Below, piece after piece: positions 1,568 to 35,622 of a stretch of DNA of 56,603 nucleotides. Both the position numbers and the translations under genes were made by a program. Each line of letters starts with the position of its first letter. The first letter of the stretch is position 1. The DNA is taken from positions 1 to 56,603 of the forward strand of contig CAZTOA010000002.1 of NCBI GenBank assembly GCA_964614975.1. The letters are read 5' to 3'. The notes beneath the pieces were generated by a model. That model did not search any database. It was not told where the DNA came from and saw only the letters and a program-made list of their open reading frames with translations. Source of the DNA: an uncultured Gammaproteobacteria bacterium (lineage in GTDB: Bacteria > Patescibacteriota > Microgenomatia > UBA1406 > HO2-37-13b).

Positions 1568-3703
1568 TTAGTTTTGGTTGGCGTTAGCTACCGCACCTCG
1601 CATAGCACCGGCAAATACTGGTTCTCTCAAAAGATCGGTCGTATCTCGTGCACCCCATGCACCTGGTATAGCAACTCGAAGTCGCGCATTTTGTTCACGT
1701 GCTGCGATTGCGGCGGCTGAAAGAGCAACGCCAGCATTGTAGTCACCATTTGGATAGATAGGCATCATTACTGCACCATAATCGACAGGATACGTTCCTA
1801 GATCAGCATCGATCTGTGCCGCGAGTTGGTCTACAGGCAAGCCATTAGCTGCGGCAGGATAATTAAATATTGGTAAAACAAGCAATGTTCGTGATCTTGG
1901 TATAGTTGCAGAAATTTCAGCTACGATTCTACGCGCATTGTCTCTCAATGCTTGATTATCTCCAAGTACAAGCCCATGTTGTTCAATTCCAACCAATCTA
2001 TCGGCTGGAGTATCTCTTAATACTCTTGCCATTACATCTTGTACGTGTGAAGTAGGCCCTGAACTCCAATGTGCTTCCAAAGGGAAGTAGTCCATATAAT
2101 TTCGGCGCCGTCTACTACTACTATTCACGTCTGATGCTGGGTTTGCAACTGCACCAATGTTCAGAGCTGGGAAAGTATCAATACCCCAACGTTGAGCAAG
2201 AACTCCATATGCTTCACGTGCAAATGCTTTTATTGGATTATCTAGCTCTGGTTCACCATAATCATTTTGACGTCTGCCTACCCACTCAGGAAATCCAGCT
2301 CGTGAATTCACATATGATGGCATGTAAAGAGACAATCCGTTTTGTTGAGCTATTCGTACAAGCAAATCAGCTTGACTTAATCTTGGGGCATTGTCTGAAT
2401 AAGCTCTACCTGGGTTAAATGCTATTCCTCGTAAATATTGTTCGCTAAATAATTGCCAGGCTTCTGCACTTCTCCAGAAGTCGGTATCCGCTATGGCAAC
2501 TTCCGGGCCTCCAAATGCTTCTACATATTGACGTACATAGGCAAGTTCAGGATAGAGTTCCACAAGTTGTTGTGGATTTTCGCTTGCTAATCGTACAATA
2601 TCATCAATTCTCATTCCCCTTGTATTGGGTGGAAGATTAATGCCAATATGGCGTTCATGATTTGAACGTGCAGCCTCAGGTTGATTAGGATTGACGTCAA
2701 CTACCTCTATACAAGCACCTTCTGGTGTTTCAACTTCGACATAATGTTGTTCACCGGTTGAGCTAGTTCTTGATAAAAGCGTGACTGTTGCAGCTCTTGC
2801 AGCCAATGTTTCTGCAGTATCACCAGTTTCATCATCACAAAGCTCTTGACCATTTACTTCCCATCGTCCATCATTTGCATCGTATGCAACTTCGGTTCTC
2901 AAATCTTGTGATTGACCATCTGGTAATGTTGCAAAAGCTCCCGCGAGTGTAAGTGTTGGATCACCGTCGAGATATAAGTTTTTTGAACCATCTATTGCGG
3001 GAATAAGATTAGGTTGTGCGACTACTTTTAATTCAACACCAGCAGGTTCATTACTCAAAGCAAAACCCGTACCAGCGAGGACATCTTGTTGTGGTTGTCC
3101 ATTAAGCCAATCAACATCGTCGGAGCCTCCAGTTGTCATGTTGACTCCATCGCCTTGCGGGGAAGTCAATACTGGTTCTCTATGCATAGCATCTGGGTTG
3201 AATACAGGGGGCACTGCTGTTACTGTTGGACTAGGTGGAGGTAAATCAGTTGGACTTGGTGGTGGATCGGTTGGGTCTGGACTCGGTGGCAAGTCTGTTG
3301 AGCTAGGTGTTGCCGAAGGCACTTCAGTAGGAGGCAATGATGTAGCAGTTGGCAGATTGGAATCTCGAGCTTGTACGGCAAGTGGAAGATAATTGTAATA
3401 TCTCTTTGGTGTATCGGTTTGACCTGAAGAAACGGTAGATTCAGGCACAGGTGTACTATTAGGAGCAGCTGTAGCGTCGTCGTCAAGTTGTTGAGGTTGT
3501 GCGTCACCCTGTAAAGCTATTCCATATGTTGGCATAGCATCTAATCTAAGATGGTGGCCAGAATCAGTGTTAGGATCAACATCCTGAGCTCTAACTGCGC
3601 CTGATTCACCTTGACTTGCTAGAACTAGTGCCACCGTAGCAAGACCGACCGTAACAGCCGATGCATGTCTTCTATCTGGTGTGTATCCGTTTTCAGCTGA
3701 CAT
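1568..3703 (-). CDS. Secreted/membrane-anchored hypothetical protein with long Pro/Thr/Ser/Asp linker
   Basis: 711-aa ORF. N-terminal hydrophobic segment AVTVGLATVALVLASQG. Low-complexity DLPPSPDPTDPPPSPTDLPPPSPT. TATAGA box 5 nt upstream of the ATG. No catalytic motif I can name. Confidence 0.55.
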   Translation of the reverse strand: MSAENGYTPDRRHASAVTVGLATVALVLASQGESGAVRAQDVDPNTDSGHHLRLDAMPTYGIALQGDAQPQQLDDDATAAPNSTPVPESTVSSGQTDTPKRYYNYLPLAVQARDSNLPTATSLPPTEVPSATPSSTDLPPSPDPTDPPPSPTDLPPPSPTVTAVPPVFNPDAMHREPVLTSPQGDGVNMTTGGSDDVDWLNGQPQQDVLAGTGFALSNEPAGVELKVVAQPNLIPAIDGSKNLYLDGDPTLTLAGAFATLPDGQSQDLRTEVAYDANDGRWEVNGQELCDDETGDTAETLAARAATVTLLSRTSSTGEQHYVEVETPEGACIEVVDVNPNQPEAARSNHERHIGINLPPNTRGMRIDDIVRLASENPQQLVELYPELAYVRQYVEAFGGPEVAIADTDFWRSAEAWQLFSEQYLRGIAFNPGRAYSDNAPRLSQADLLVRIAQQNGLSLYMPSYVNSRAGFPEWVGRRQNDYGEPELDNPIKAFAREAYGVLAQRWGIDTFPALNIGAVANPASDVNSSSRRRRNYMDYFPLEAHWSSGPTSHVQDVMARVLRDTPADRLVGIEQHGLVLGDNQALRDNARRIVAEISATIPRSRTLLVLPIFNYPAAANGLPVDQLAAQIDADLGTYPVDYGAVMMPIYPNGDYNAGVALSAAAIAAREQNARLRVAIPGAWGARDTTDLLREPVFAGAMRGAVANANQN

Positions 3704-22185: not shown

Positions 22186-22236
22186 TGCGATAGTATAGCA
22201 AAGAGGCAGCTGATCTTATATAGCCTATAGTTTATA

Positions 22237-22245
22237 TGGTATAAT
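22237..22245 (+). promoter_or_regulatory. Extended -10 promoter (TGGTATAAT) of cassette 5
   Basis: Same TGGTATAATAT word as upstream of cassette 6 (23159-23169). No good -35. Confidence 0.4.
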
Positions 22246-22302
22246 ATTTCATCATTCGCTTGGGGCTCAGGCTCTTGGGAGGAAGCGAAAGAAGGAGTGA
22301 GC

Positions 22303-22518
22303 ATGTACGGAGTGTATGCGGGTATCCAATATCTTGTCACCGTGAAGGACGGCAAACGATACATCGGCATCCAAGACATGAACTTCGTCACCAAGCTTGT
22401 CGCCGCCGGCATCGATGTGACGGTGCTGGACGACATTGGCGATCAGCAACCTGACGACGTTGTTCAGGGGTTGCTCGAAAGCCTGCTTGCGGCCTCGACA
22501 AAGGCCAGTCCGGACTGA
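22303..22518 (+). CDS. Cassette 5 ORF: 71-aa protein MYGVYAGIQYLVTVKDGKRYIGIQDMNFVTKLVAAGIDVTVLDDIGDQQPDDVVQGLLESLLAASTKASPD
   Basis: AAGGAG (22292-22297) lies 5 nt upstream of the ATG. Shares KDG(K/R)R.I and (L/F)DDIG(D/E)...DV...G(L/M) blocks with the cassette 6 ORF. Confidence 0.5.
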   Translation: MYGVYAGIQYLVTVKDGKRYIGIQDMNFVTKLVAAGIDVTVLDDIGDQQPDDVVQGLLESLLAASTKASPD

Positions 22519-22524
22519 CCGGAC

Positions 22525-22548
22525 AAATGCCGACCTCCCTCGGCATTT
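22525..22548 (+). terminator. Hairpin ending cassette 5
   Basis: AAATGCCGA/TCGGCATTT 9-bp stem. A GTCCGG/CCGGAC stem overlaps the stop codon. Confidence 0.5.
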
Positions 22549-22600
22549 CTCTTCATCTTCAGGTGTATAATTTATTCATTACAAGTTCATATAAATACGT

Positions 22601-23092
22601 ATGAACAAGAACAATCTTCTTATAATCGTGTTGGCAGTTCTCGTTATCGGTGGTGGATTTTGGTATATGAAATCCAAAAATTCGACTGCCATGATAAATG
22701 ACCAGGAAAGCGCAACAGTTGTTGAAGAAGACGCAATCGGTGAGGATGGCGCAAAGTTAGAAGGCGTCATGAATGTCGCTTTAGCAGAACAATCAGGTAG
22801 CACAATGAAGCAATCAGGAACTGCCATGATTGAGGAAAAGGACGGCTCAGTCGTCGTTACTTTATCAGTAAGTCCAGCTGGAAAAGTGTCACAGCCAGCT
22901 CATATTCATATGGGTGCTTGTCCTACACCAGGTGAAGTTGCGTATCCTTTGACCGATGTTGTTGATGGAAAGTCTGTTACAACGCTCAGCGTTACGATGG
23001 CAGCCTTGAAAGAGCAGATGCCACTTGCAATCAACGTTCATAAGAGCGCTGATGAACCAAAAGTCTATACCGCATGCGGTGACTTGAAATAA
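22601..23092 (+). CDS. Membrane-anchored hypothetical protein, possibly CHRD-like
   Basis: 163 aa with an N-terminal TM helix. PAHIHMGACPTPGEV resembles the CHRD-domain HIHxG pattern. AT-rich, host-like codon usage. Confidence 0.4.
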   Translation: MNKNNLLIIVLAVLVIGGGFWYMKSKNSTAMINDQESATVVEEDAIGEDGAKLEGVMNVALAEQSGSTMKQSGTAMIEEKDGSVVVTLSVSPAGKVSQPAHIHMGACPTPGEVAYPLTDVVDGKSVTTLSVTMAALKEQMPLAINVHKSADEPKVYTACGDLK

Positions 23093-23117
23093 AATAAGGA
23101 TAAAAATGTTAGTTATG

Positions 23118-23142
23118 AGCCGCCCAGCCGGGCGGCTTTTTT
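23118..23142 (+). terminator. Rho-independent terminator of the 22601-23092 gene
   Basis: GCCGCCC-AGCC-GGGCGGC stem-loop followed by TTTTTT. Confidence 0.8.
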
Positions 23143-23158
23143 ATTGCCAGGATGCGAC

Positions 23159-23167
23159 TGGTATAAT
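23159..23167 (+). promoter_or_regulatory. Extended -10 promoter (TGGTATAAT) of cassette 6
   Basis: TGGTATAAT at 23159-23167. TTGCCA lies only 12 nt upstream, too close for a standard -35. Confidence 0.4.
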
Positions 23168-23237
23168 ATATGCCAAGACAAAATCGCTTAGGAACGTTCG
23201 TTTCTTGGGGGAAGCGGTTTGAACAGCGAGGTGACGC

Positions 23238-23441
23238 ATGAACGACGAGTTGCTCGATACGGGAAACCACATGGGAATTCCATACGAGCTTTGGAGAAAG
23301 GACGGCAGGCGCTGTATCGTTGTTCCGAAGGAGTTGCTCGAAAATCCGCCCTACGGCGTAAGCTTCGAGGGTTTTGACGACATTGGCGAGCGCGAAGCCC
23401 AAGATGTTCTATATGACGCCGTTGAAGGCATGTTCGAATAG
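23238..23441 (+). CDS. Cassette 6 ORF: 67-aa acidic protein, paralogue of the cassette 5 ORF
   Basis: GAGG lies 6 nt upstream of the ATG. MNDELLDTGNHMGIPYELWRKDGRRCIVVPKELLENPPYGVSFEGFDDIGEREAQDVLYDAVEGMFE. The leader shares CGCTT...CTTGGGRGGAAGCG with cassette 5. Confidence 0.5.
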   Translation: MNDELLDTGNHMGIPYELWRKDGRRCIVVPKELLENPPYGVSFEGFDDIGEREAQDVLYDAVEGMFE

Positions 23442-23459
23442 CCCGTCAGGCGGGCATAA

Positions 23460-23486
23460 GGAGCCGTCTCCCACGGCTCCTTTCTT
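23460..23486 (+). terminator. Rho-independent terminator of cassette 6
   Basis: GGAGCCG/CGGCTCC stem followed by TTTCTT, preceded by a GCCCG/CGGGC mini-hairpin. Confidence 0.7.
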
Positions 23487-23513
23487 ACTAAAATTAATTT
23501 TATACTAATAAAA

Positions 23514-24497
23514 ATGACTGCAAAAAAAGGAAATTTTTGGAGGGAACTTACGAAACCACTGTTTGTACAGGCTCCTATGGAAGATGTGACCGATACTGTG
23601 TGTCGACAAATGATTACAAAATGCGGGAAACCCGATGTATTTTTCACTGAATTCACGAACGTGGACGGTATGTTTTCTGAAGGGCGCGAACTTGTTACGC
23701 AAAGATTAAAATATACTGAAATTGAGCGTCCATTAGTTGCCCAAATTTGGGGAGCTAATCCAGACAACTTCTATAAAGCAGCTCAATATATTAAAGAACT
23801 CGGTTTTGATGGCATTGACTTGAACATGGGTTGCCCAATTAAAGATGTTGTTAAAAAGGGGCTTTGTGCTGGGTTGATGAATAATCGAAATCTTGCAACA
23901 GATATTATTGAGGCGGTTAAAGATGGGGCGGGAGGTTTGCCGGTTAGTGTTAAGACGCGCATAGGTATTAATTCAATAATTACTGAAGATTGGATCGGGT
24001 TTTTGCTAGATCATAATCTTAGTGCTCTTACCATTCACGGACGTACGGTCAAGGAAATGTCTTCAGTTCCAGCTCATTGGGACGAAATTGCAAAAGCCGT
24101 CGAGCTCAGGGCACGGTCTAAAAAAGACACGGTCTTAATAGGAAACGGTGATGTAAAATCCCGTCAAGACGGCTTAGAAAAAATTGCAGCATCTGGGATT
24201 GATGGAGTAATGCTTGGGCGCGGCATTCTTGAAAATCCTTGGGTATTTAATACCGAGGAAAAATATAAAAACCCCGCAAATGTGAGTTCAGAAGAGCGAC
24301 TCAAAACGTATGCACAGCATGTGAAATTGCATCAGGAAACTTGGGGAAATACTAAACATTTTGATCGTTTAAAAAAATATATGAAAATGTATATTCGCGA
24401 TTTTGCGGGATCAGGCGAATTACGCATTGAAATTGCAAAGTCGCGCAATGCAGAAGAACTACTTGCTTTGTTGGACAACAATAAGGCACGATCCTAA
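23514..24497 (+). CDS. dus: tRNA-dihydrouridine synthase
   Basis: QAPMEDVTD and DGIDLNMGCP (catalytic Cys) motifs. TATACT at 23501-23506 is 7 nt from the ATG. Confidence 0.9.
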   Translation: MTAKKGNFWRELTKPLFVQAPMEDVTDTVCRQMITKCGKPDVFFTEFTNVDGMFSEGRELVTQRLKYTEIERPLVAQIWGANPDNFYKAAQYIKELGFDGIDLNMGCPIKDVVKKGLCAGLMNNRNLATDIIEAVKDGAGGLPVSVKTRIGINSIITEDWIGFLLDHNLSALTIHGRTVKEMSSVPAHWDEIAKAVELRARSKKDTVLIGNGDVKSRQDGLEKIAASGIDGVMLGRGILENPWVFNTEEKYKNPANVSSEERLKTYAQHVKLHQETWGNTKHFDRLKKYMKMYIRDFAGSGELRIEIAKSRNAEELLALLDNNKARS

Positions 24498-34620: not shown

Positions 34621-35622
34621 TCAGCGGTTGAAGCTGAACGCGGGGAGGAAGCGGCGCCGATTGACGAAGGCCAGGCCGAAAGCCGCGCCGATCGCCATGA
34701 GCCAGCCGATGATGTCGGTGGCCGCGCCGGTGGTGGCACCCTTCGAGCCGGCCAACTTGAGGTCGAACGGCTGGCAGACGCCATCGACCCGGGTGAGCTT
34801 GGTGAAGCTGCCACCGGGAGTCGCGTCCAGGTCGCCGAGGTACATGGGCTTGCCGCCGGAAGTCGGGATGCGGAAGACCCGCCAATTCCCGCTGCTGATG
34901 GCCACCTTGATGCCCACGGCGAGGCCGTCGAAGCTGCGCTCCATGCCCAGCTTCTTGTCCTTGTTGAAGGCCGCCAGGGCCGCCTCGGCGGTCATGGCCT
35001 TGCCGTTCAGCACGAACAGGAGCTTGCCCGTGAACACGTCGTTGGTGTCACCCACGATGACCTCGGCGGTCTTGGTCGTGGTGATCGGCGACGTGGTGGC
35101 GAAGAGGCACATGGCGGTGCCGGTCGGGGCCGCGGCCGTGGTCGTCTTGGTCGTGCCGGTCTTGGCCTTGGCCGTGGTCGTGCCGCAATAGCCACCGAAG
35201 GTGTTCGACTGACCGCCGACGACTGTGAGGAACGTCGGGATGACCTTGACGTTCGTGCCGTTGAAGAGCACGACGACGTAGTCACCCTCGTCGACCCCGC
35301 CGCCACCGACGGTCGTGCCGCCCTTGACGGTGTCGACCACGGTGGTGCGGAGCTGGTAGACGTTGGCCACGCCGGCCTCGTTGGTGCCGGTGATGACCTT
35401 GCCGTTCTTGACGGCCCAGCCCGGGGCATCGGCGTAGAAGAACTTGGCCCAGGTCTGGCCGGAGCCCTCGGAGGGCTGGCACAGCTCCAGGCTGACGTTG
35501 CCCTGGCCGCCCATGGTGGACGGCGAGGCGTTGGCGGTGCCGGCGAAGCCGGCGAGCATGGAGGCCACCAGGACGGCGGCCAGGCCGAAGGACGTGACGA
35601 TGCGATTGAAGCGGGTGGACAT
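34621..35622 (-). CDS. Cassette 7 ORF: 333-aa secreted surface protein with C-terminal sorting-signal-like tail
   Basis: AAGGAG (35633-35638) lies 10 nt upstream of the ATG at 35622. Signal peptide MSTRFNRIVTSFGLAAVLVASMLAGFAGTANA. Two Cys-bracketed domains joined by TTAKAKTGTTKTTTAAAPTGT. The C-terminus is IIGWLMAIGAAFGLAFVNRRRF. Almost every codon ends in G/C. Confidence 0.6.
   Translation of the reverse strand: MSTRFNRIVTSFGLAAVLVASMLAGFAGTANASPSTMGGQGNVSLELCQPSEGSGQTWAKFFYADAPGWAVKNGKVITGTNEAGVANVYQLRTTVVDTVKGGTTVGGGGVDEGDYVVVLFNGTNVKVIPTFLTVVGGQSNTFGGYCGTTTAKAKTGTTKTTTAAAPTGTAMCLFATTSPITTTKTAEVIVGDTNDVFTGKLLFVLNGKAMTAEAALAAFNKDKKLGMERSFDGLAVGIKVAISSGNWRVFRIPTSGGKPMYLGDLDATPGGSFTKLTRVDGVCQPFDLKLAGSKGATTGAATDIIGWLMAIGAAFGLAFVNRRRFLPAFSFNR

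Follow-up and report, generated by a model that had tools for sequence, protein, structure and literature searches.

Two small-protein mRNAs of a Microgenomatia genome share a covarying leader and a leader loop complementary to the terminator loop

Which part of a very small bacterial gene is kept by selection: its protein, its leader or the frame of the whole messenger RNA? The question is raised by two short units, cassette 5 (22237-22554, +) and cassette 6 (23144-23486, +), in a 56,603-nucleotide (nt) stretch of DNA (GenBank assembly GCA_964614975.1, contig CAZTOA010000002.1, positions 1 to 56,603 of the forward strand), referred to hereafter as the window. The contig is AT-rich (about 40% G+C) and its source genome, placed in the Patescibacteriota, Microgenomatia, is small (1.01 Mb, 97% complete). 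An earlier note, made from the sequence alone, took cassette 6 for a paralogue of cassette 5 and proposed a small-protein family on a mobile or duplicated expression unit with its regulation in the leader. We find that the family is real. The selected unit, we conclude, is the whole mRNA frame, namely a promoter, a leader with two stems (P1, P2) and a G-rich internal loop (J2), a separate Shine-Dalgarno (SD) sequence, an open reading frame (ORF) and a terminator with a matching loop. We give a probability of roughly 0.55 to the explanation that the sequences suggest, in which the mRNAs of both family members pair J2 with the terminator loop, preferably with a stabilizing effect.

Cassettes 5 and 6 are predicted to be two self-contained, single-gene transcription units. 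Each would yield a monocistronic RNA that begins ~7 nt past TATAAT and ends at 23486 (cassette 6) or ~22554 (cassette 5). On the + strand, cassette 6 reads TGGTATAAT, a leader of ~70 nt, an ORF of 67 amino acids (aa), found where the earlier note had placed it, a hairpin and then TTTCTT. Cassette 5 has the same layout ~920 nt upstream, between ychF and a gene for a 163-aa lipoprotein-like protein. The promoter word TGGTATAATAT is shared as had been stated, with exact copies at 22237 and 23159, but its count alone is not above chance (3 matches with at most one mismatch against 1.4 expected). The -10 box of cassette 6 recurs, with its spacing, in the orthologues of genomes G023 and G024 and of metagenome contigs L041 and L042, and the ortholog in genome G021 reads TGATATAAT. 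The orthologues also fold a hairpin directly after the stop codon, of different sequence.

The peptide blocks quoted in the earlier note are present in both proteins, and a single BLASTP comparison gave 19/61 identities with E = 4e-7. In a six-frame search of the source genome each protein matched only the other (E about 0.02), and a word-indexed protein search with the cassette 6 protein alone returned only itself. The note had advised a profile built from both proteins, conceding that acidic composition alone might explain the similarity if no further members came to light; the search produced many. With the two-protein profile, three of four congeneric genomes each yielded a single-copy relative. 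A five-sequence profile run against 1.84 billion representative proteins matched 19 small proteins (57-136 aa) over the whole profile; six giant proteins in the same search were rejected as spurious because a beta-hairpin-like stretch of their WD40/TPR repeats was all that matched. A second profile, in a word-indexed search, added 25 clusters, one of them named Candidatus Gottesmanbacteria by its source. Degenerate peptide patterns, run over public metagenomes and over genome contigs, turned up a single locus in either collection, that in the contigs being titled Patescibacteria UBA10108. The similarity is thus real and ordered, and the locus defines a new, unnamed family of small acidic proteins with about 40 members, mostly of 60-80 aa, so far found in Microgenomates/Patescibacteria. 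The family consensus is GIYAG..Y.V..KDGK.YI...GA(D/N)..LL.DIGDQDPDDVMAALFESIP. One member, P0012 (136 aa), consists of two complete domain copies fused in tandem.

Every member checked was acidic, with an isoelectric point (pI) of 4.0-4.8. AlphaFold gave the two proteins a common predicted topology of three antiparallel beta-strands followed by two or three helices, with predicted local distance difference test (pLDDT) scores of 88.5 (cassette 6) and 90.7 (cassette 5). No significant profile match to either protein was found in Pfam, NCBIfam, PHROGs, PADLOC or the PDB sequences, and Foldseek with both models gave no significant neighbor (best E 0.7 and 1.5 in the PDB, 0.14 in BFVD). The proteins are predicted to be cytoplasmic; they are uncharacterized, and undescribed in the libraries searched. 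Because they are small and acidic and carry no catalytic motifs, our guess is that they bind or inhibit another protein.

Short acidic proteins can resemble each other by chance or through low complexity, and in an AT-rich genome a GC-rich island is often the sign of a structured RNA. It might therefore be supposed that the two units share no function, or that they encode a structured non-coding RNA, and to this we assign next to no probability. It is refuted by full-length profile matches to about 40 proteins and by the pattern of substitution. Among the dus-linked orthologues of cassette 6, it is the third codon position that differs most often (with counts such as 20, 12 and 38 at positions 1, 2 and 3), and the proportion of nonsynonymous differences (pN) is 0.25-0.53 against 0.62-0.85 for synonymous ones (pS), so that synonymous sites are saturated. 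The small proteins are 28-45% identical where the Dus proteins next to them are 71-75% identical. These three observations show the ORF to be a real, fast-evolving gene. The AlphaFold models are confident and concordant, and the whole transcripts fold only weakly better than shuffled sequences.

The leaders of the two genes fold alike. Both minimum-energy folds have an outer stem, P1, around a hairpin, P2, with an asymmetric 3' internal loop, J2, that contains a run of Gs. The CGCTT...AAGCG stem described in the earlier note occurs in both leaders and is this outer stem. The longer word CTTGGGRGGAAGCG, also quoted as shared, is exact in cassette 5 (22274-22287), but cassette 6 has CTTGGGGGAAGCG, which is one G shorter. 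Ten units have this leader design: cassettes 5 and 6, G021, G023, G024, L041, L042, L044, L048 and L051. Base pairs were counted on an N-padded alignment that was built manually to fit the model, since the MAFFT alignment of the leaders was structurally wrong. P1 was 100% paired over the ten units, and 8/8 of its pairs had changed on both sides (CGCTT/AAGCG, ATGCGC/GCGCAT, ATCACA/TGTGAT and TTGCTT/AAGCAA are among the variants). P2 was also 100% paired with 7/9 pairs changed on both sides, and in L041, L048 and L051 its sequence is wholly different with the pairing kept. Controls in which the arms were slid were 41-50% paired. The P1 sequence of cassette 5 recurs in L048 and L051. In L044 the AAGCGAA arm is kept and two C-to-T changes in the 5' arm give G.U pairs. 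The G.U pairs of the leader exist only when the + strand is read, which argues for an RNA rather than a DNA structure. Since leader and ORF are kept together in members whose proteins are only ~30% identical, a function in the leader RNA is indicated.

The leader element occurs in its own genome at cassettes 5 and 6 only. A loose descriptor (P1-P2-GGGNG-P1') gave 62 matches in the whole genome, mostly by chance, and CGCTT...AAGCG was among them only in the two cassettes. Cassettes 1-4 and 8 of the window were tried as carriers of the same leader type and have different leaders; the word GGGGAGGAAGCG at 34640 belongs to cassette 7, the leader of which is not equivalent. Nothing in the window reached the gathering threshold of an Rfam model, and an E-value scan of 22200-23520 gave weak terminator-like matches only, none of them on the leaders.

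The leader is not alone in being kept, because the loop of the terminator matches J2. The proposal that regulation resides in the leader missed this partner in the terminator. In the g1-type orthologues J2 reads UGGGG and the terminator loop CCCCA (5 bp), and in L041 they are UGGGGG and CCCCCA (6 bp). Cassette 6 has UGGGGGA, with A23212 included, opposite UCUCCCA at 23467-23473 (7 bp, one G.U). Cassette 5 and L044 have GGGAGG and its exact reverse complement CCUCCC. L048 has GAGAGGGCGG in J2 and CCGCCCUCUC in the loop, exact over 10 nt; L051 has the same J2 with one mismatch to its loop. The central pair is G-C in five units, G.U in one, A-U in two and C-G in two. Complementarity between the untranslated regions (UTRs) at the two ends, 5' and 3', with compensatory change, thus appears at the level of sequence in the ten units. 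Calculated energies of the cognate duplexes range from -9.3 to -21.7 kcal/mol, and the duplexes form three classes of specificity. Over the alignment, the long-range helix is 86.6% paired compared to 73.6% for shuffled and 47-68% for slid versions. It has a covariation score of 0.302 against 0.10 for shuffles, of which 0/500 reached it.

The terminators are conserved as well. A hairpin scan placed intrinsic terminators with T-rich tails at 22528-22545 and 23461-23478; a stricter consensus search for terminators listed neither. In dus-linked units the terminator is GGAGCCG-NNCCCCA-CGGCTCC, and the stem sequence is identical in seven g1-type units and L044 despite the saturation of synonymous sites. 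Under the same saturation, the dus-linked orthologues have kept the CCC core of the loop and, in J2, a TGGG core. When GGAGCCG-N6-8-CGGCTCC was sought in 223 genomes of the order, a C-rich loop was found in this genus only. Among 187 terminator-like hairpins of the genome, only those of cassettes 5 and 6 have a C-rich loop, which lends independent support to the match between J2 and the loop.

Several observations weigh against pairing between J2 and the terminator loop, or limit how far it can be pressed. The long-range helix holds only ~3 independent covariation events; of its seven pairs, two are invariant and three depart only by unpaired cells, and in L051 the helix has an internal mismatch. 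The alignment behind the counts is, as noted, hand-made and model-fitted. Unconstrained RNAduplex runs of whole 5' against whole 3' UTRs gave long implausible duplexes and no general or cognate signal; the complementarity is local to the two loops. Folded whole, the mRNAs exceed shuffles in stability only by a modest margin (z = -1.3 and -1.8). Other leaders are found in eight family members (L045, L046, L047, L049, L050, L053, L054 and L055). The stabilizing direction of the effect is our preference, taken from analogy, and not a result.

With these points taken into account, loop-loop pairing between the 5' and 3' ends of the molecule is probably what the complementarity reflects. Once the transcript is complete, J2 would pair with the loop of its own terminator, mostly through 5-7 bp and up to 10 bp in L048, and the contact would join the two ends of the mRNA. 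The joined ends, or cleavage sites nearby, would be shielded from ribonucleases, so that the full-length mRNA would be long-lived and the small protein abundant. We favor protection from RNases because of the analogy with hbs (below) and because P1 begins ~2-8 nt past the predicted start of transcription.

Pairing of mRNA ends in bacteria is known from very few cases, each experimental. In the hbs mRNA of Bacillus subtilis, 5'/3'-UTR pairing was shown by experiment to modulate the access of RNase Y and RNase J1 (Braun, Durand and Condon 2017, PMC5737220). That mRNA is short and, as would hold here, highly expressed; it too encodes a small protein and has a structured 5' UTR and complementary UTR segments in one molecule. 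The hbs duplex is a linear 14-bp helix over a cleavage site, whereas here an internal loop would meet a terminator loop through a shorter helix and the evidence is comparative; the proteins are unrelated. In Escherichia coli ompA and the aprE/ermC leaders of B. subtilis, 5'-terminal stem-loops stabilize the message. Like P1 they lie at or near the 5' end, but they act alone, without a 3' partner. In plant RNA viruses the ends are joined over a long distance, by kissing loops that 3' translation elements form with 5' hairpins. These contacts resemble the present ones in being short, G/C-rich and loop to loop, and differ in serving cap-independent translation in eukaryotes.

The loop of an intrinsic terminator can also act in trans. 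The terminator loops of ArrS, RseX and SdsR act on the fepA 5' UTR in a manner dependent on Hfq and RNase E and, as reported there, likely without base-pairing (Solchaga Flores et al. 2024, PMC11979758). There, as here, a terminator loop is a regulatory determinant directed at a structured 5'-UTR element far upstream; in the present mRNAs the partner would lie in cis, and base-pair covariation supplies the evidence. Within this genome the cassette 6 loop (UCUCCCA, 23467-23473) would bind the cassette 5 J2 (UGGGAGG, 22276-22282) at -11.1 kcal/mol and its own J2 at -10.5; cross-talk between the two mRNAs is possible. The closest relative, L041, has ACCCCCA in place of UCUCCCA. In L048 (~750-780) the 10-nt complement of J2 spans the loop and the 3' arm of a weak terminator hairpin (AAGAG-ACCGCC-CTCTT), so that leader pairing there would compete with formation of the terminator. 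Two unrelated contigs with conservative-type members, L047 (~2760-2800) and L053 (~1800-1840), have the 3'-UTR word CCRGACGGGYRGYTCCGTTAG in common, which could be a different conserved 3' element.

The same pairing data could be read as repression rather than stabilization. In Staphylococcus aureus icaR, a 3'-UTR UCCCCUG pairs with the SD region, leading to translational repression and cleavage by RNase III (Ruiz de los Mozos et al. 2013, PMC3868564). The mRNAs compared here also carry a C-rich 3'-UTR motif (CCCCA, CCUCCC) complementary to a G-rich segment of the 5' UTR, and J2 resembles an SD sequence in most units (GGGAGG, GGGGGA); the terminator loop might thus mimic an anti-SD, lower translation and create a target for RNase III. 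Unlike icaR, J2 is a separate internal loop 20-45 nt before the start codon, apart from the real SD. In L048 and L051 it reads GGGCGG and does not resemble an SD, yet the change is matched in the 3' partner (CCGCCC). The true SD sequences (GAGGTG at 23228-23233 and AAGGAG at 22292-22297) match the terminator loop less well than J2 does, and pairing of the 3' motif with the SD region was not found. The 3' end of the 16S rRNA, which holds the anti-SD, is absent from the assembly. Because J2 lies apart from the SD and is not SD-like in two units, we regard self-repression, though the leading alternative, as unlikely.

Somewhat less likely again is a division of labor, with the leader sensing the encoded protein, another protein or a ligand and the C-rich loop being kept for a separate purpose, such as a trans-acting small RNA derived from the 3' UTR and directed at SD regions. 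Conserved P1, P2 and J2 with invariant loop Gs recall many protein- or ligand-binding RNA motifs, and the terminator stem in the dus-linked group is invariant beyond what pairing demands, a sign of recognition by sequence. Staphylococcal small RNAs are reported to target SD regions through C-rich loops (PMC2790875). The element is nevertheless very small (~35 nt), has one conserved loop only and is without a relative in Rfam, and the family proteins, being acidic, are unlikely to bind RNA. Covariation between J2 and the terminator loop would not be expected if the two acted independently.

We return to loop-loop pairing as the preferred explanation. UTR pairing as such is a known mechanism; a contact between an internal loop and a terminator loop that is kept across a gene family by compensatory change would be a new form of it, and a full-text literature search found no description of that form. 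More tentatively, and in our judgment less probable than its converse, the mRNAs may exemplify a portable closed-loop design: a promoter-to-terminator module in bacteria of the candidate phyla radiation, kept by compensatory change as far as the family can be traced. If the contact is real, it would be one between the 5' and 3' ends of a bacterial mRNA that was first recognized by covariation, not experiment, and in hosts whose RNA biology is almost unknown. The locus is a compact system of ~300 nt that can be tested by mutation, and evolution has already supplied the compensatory changes.

Comparison of gene neighborhoods and phylogeny bears on the other part of the earlier proposal, that the cassettes are duplicated or mobile. 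A cassette 6-type gene lies immediately upstream of dus in G021, G023 and G024, in metagenome contigs L041 and L042, and in the distant L044, where the order is lipoprotein, small gene, dus and a 65-aa membrane protein. In the fourth congener, G022, dus is missing too, in an assembly that is 82% complete. Other genera of the host family have dus with no comparable unit upstream, and a search of 219 other genomes of the order gave no credible family match; the weak match in G194 was checked and is not a family member. Cassette 6 is thus a resident, fast-evolving orthologue, directly upstream of dus wherever the region is assembled in the genus; counted together, three congeners and four metagenome contigs have it at this site. 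In the protein tree, the g1-type dus-linked proteins form an eight-member clade (support 99/97) on a long stem. The cassette 5 protein falls in an unresolved 28-member conservative group, together with the dus-linked protein of L044. The two are therefore deep paralogues, and a recent duplication is not supported.

Cassette 5 has a different history. The ychF/lipoprotein intergenic site of G023, G024 and L041 aligns without a 361-bp segment that holds the whole unit (Table 1), and it is more parsimonious that cassette 5 was gained once in this lineage, as a complete unit, which is probably what occurred. A mobile unit thus finds weak support in cassette 5, the only one of the two that looks gained, and none in cassette 6, which is fixed upstream of dus. 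The stronger proposal is that the unit is mobile DNA, with the complementary words as remnants of terminal inverted repeats or recombination sites. The clean indel, confined to this genome, fits it, as do the varied contexts of conservative-type members elsewhere, near toxin-antitoxin genes or a rolling-circle Rep, and the patchiness of the family, which occurs in one more of the roughly 400 genomes sampled from the class. Examination of the borders of the indel found no target-site duplication, terminal inverted repeat or recombinase. The words occupy an internal loop and a hairpin loop, both within the transcript and away from the ends of the unit. The G.U pairs work only in RNA from the + strand, and the site of cassette 6 did not change over the time in which its synonymous sites became saturated. 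No relatives were found in IMG/VR or the phage collections scanned. The genome has two diverged copies only, with no border repeats or duplications of the kind seen with miniature inverted-repeat transposable elements or insertion sequences. The units also differ from integron cassettes in having their own -10 boxes, plain terminator hairpins of 6-9 bp and the housekeeping neighbors ychF and dus, a comparison made without running attC models. Given the transcript-internal words, the G.U pairs and the fixed site of cassette 6, we consider mobile DNA a very improbable source of the complementarity.

Some features of the neighborhoods were recorded in their own right. Beside conservative-type members are an MNT/HepT toxin-antitoxin pair in L046 (1083-1717) and a HicB-like antitoxin in L048 (1423-1659). 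The 5.1-kb contig L055 has a rolling-circle Rep (REP_ORF2-G2P) gene (1-527) beside a family member. The 163-aa lipoprotein-like gene between the cassettes (22601-23092, AHIH.GACP motif) is kept in full in G000 and G024. In G023 and L041 it has shrunk to a 38-aa frame in which only a signal-peptide-like N-terminus is left (L006 ~1800-1915 (-), L039 2283-2399, L041 2284-2400). The start of dus lies 7-10 nt past its own -10-like box (G023: GGTATAAT gctctcc ATG; window 23487-23516; also L006 ~1425-1440 and L005 ~1535-1560), directly behind the terminator of the small gene, so that dus looks almost leaderless and separately transcribed. The constant adjacency of the small gene to dus in one lineage is a lead only. 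An alternative-frame ORF of 52 aa (23219-23377), with a TTG start 6 nt past the G-rich leader loop of cassette 6, is probably spurious. The automatic ORF list starts the cassette 5 ORF at GTG 22297.

Table 1. Positions in the window of the predicted elements of cassettes 5 and 6
Feature	Unit	Position	Strand	Sequence, description and basis
Extended -10 promoter box	Cassette 6	23159-23167	+	TGGTATAAT; predicted from sequence
P1, 5' arm	Cassette 6	23182-23189	+	AATCGCTT; pairs with 23212-23219 in minimum-energy fold
P2 hairpin	Cassette 6	23190-23205	+	AGGAAC-GTTC-GTTTCT; fold
J2, G-rich 3' internal loop	Cassette 6	23206-23211	+	TGGGGG; unpaired in leader fold
P1, 3' arm	Cassette 6	23212-23219	+	AAGCGGTT; fold, pair counts
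SD-like sequence	Cassette 6	23228-23233	+	GAGGTG; 4 nt before ATG, distinct from the G-rich loop
ORF	Cassette 6	23238-23441	+	67 aa, acidic, pI 4.25; dus-linked subfamily
3'-UTR small hairpin	Cassette 6	23442-23454	+	CCCGTCAGGCGGG; right behind the stop codon; fold
Intrinsic terminator	Cassette 6	23460-23486	+	GGAGCCG, loop TCTCCCA, CGGCTCC, then TTTCTT
Indel with whole unit	Cassette 5	22204-22564	+	361 bp; absent from congeners
Extended -10 promoter box	Cassette 5	22237-22245	+	TGGTATAAT; predicted from sequence
Leader element	Cassette 5	22255-22289	+	P1 TTCGCTT/AAGCGAA, P2 GGGGC-TCAG-GCTCT, J2 TGGGAGG (22276-22282); fold, descriptor scan, pair counts
SD sequence	Cassette 5	22292-22297	+	AAGGAG; sequence
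ORF	Cassette 5	22303-22518	+	71 aa from ATG, acidic, pI 4.21; conservative GIYAG subfamily
Intrinsic terminator	Cassette 5	22525-22554	+	AAATGCCGA, loop CCTCCC (22534-22539), TCGGCATTT, then U-rich tail

Both genes are far richer in G+C than their genome. The G+C content at third codon positions (GC3) is 0.63 in cassette 6 and 0.69 in cassette 5, compared to 0.33 ± 0.08 for 652 long ORFs. It is 0.31 for EF-Tu and GroEL, so the usual bias of strongly expressed genes does not account for the excess. The excess sits at synonymous sites and persists in resident orthologues (0.54-0.63 among the dus-linked relatives of cassette 6, L044 included), and outside the genus the gene exceeds its surroundings in G+C at 10 of 11 loci. 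The GC-rich mini-genes are thus old residents, for which neither recent import nor ordinary expression bias is a sufficient explanation. They form a genome-wide class that is not special to this window; a closed-loop design, if it is borne out, might help to explain this minority. A scattered minority of ORFs across the genome has a GC3 of 0.6-0.92, for example at C6:23414-26611, C3:40524-46936, C7:791-1306, C18:13232-13891 and C48:3927-4934, and contig C6 has a run of four small acidic ORFs with high GC3.

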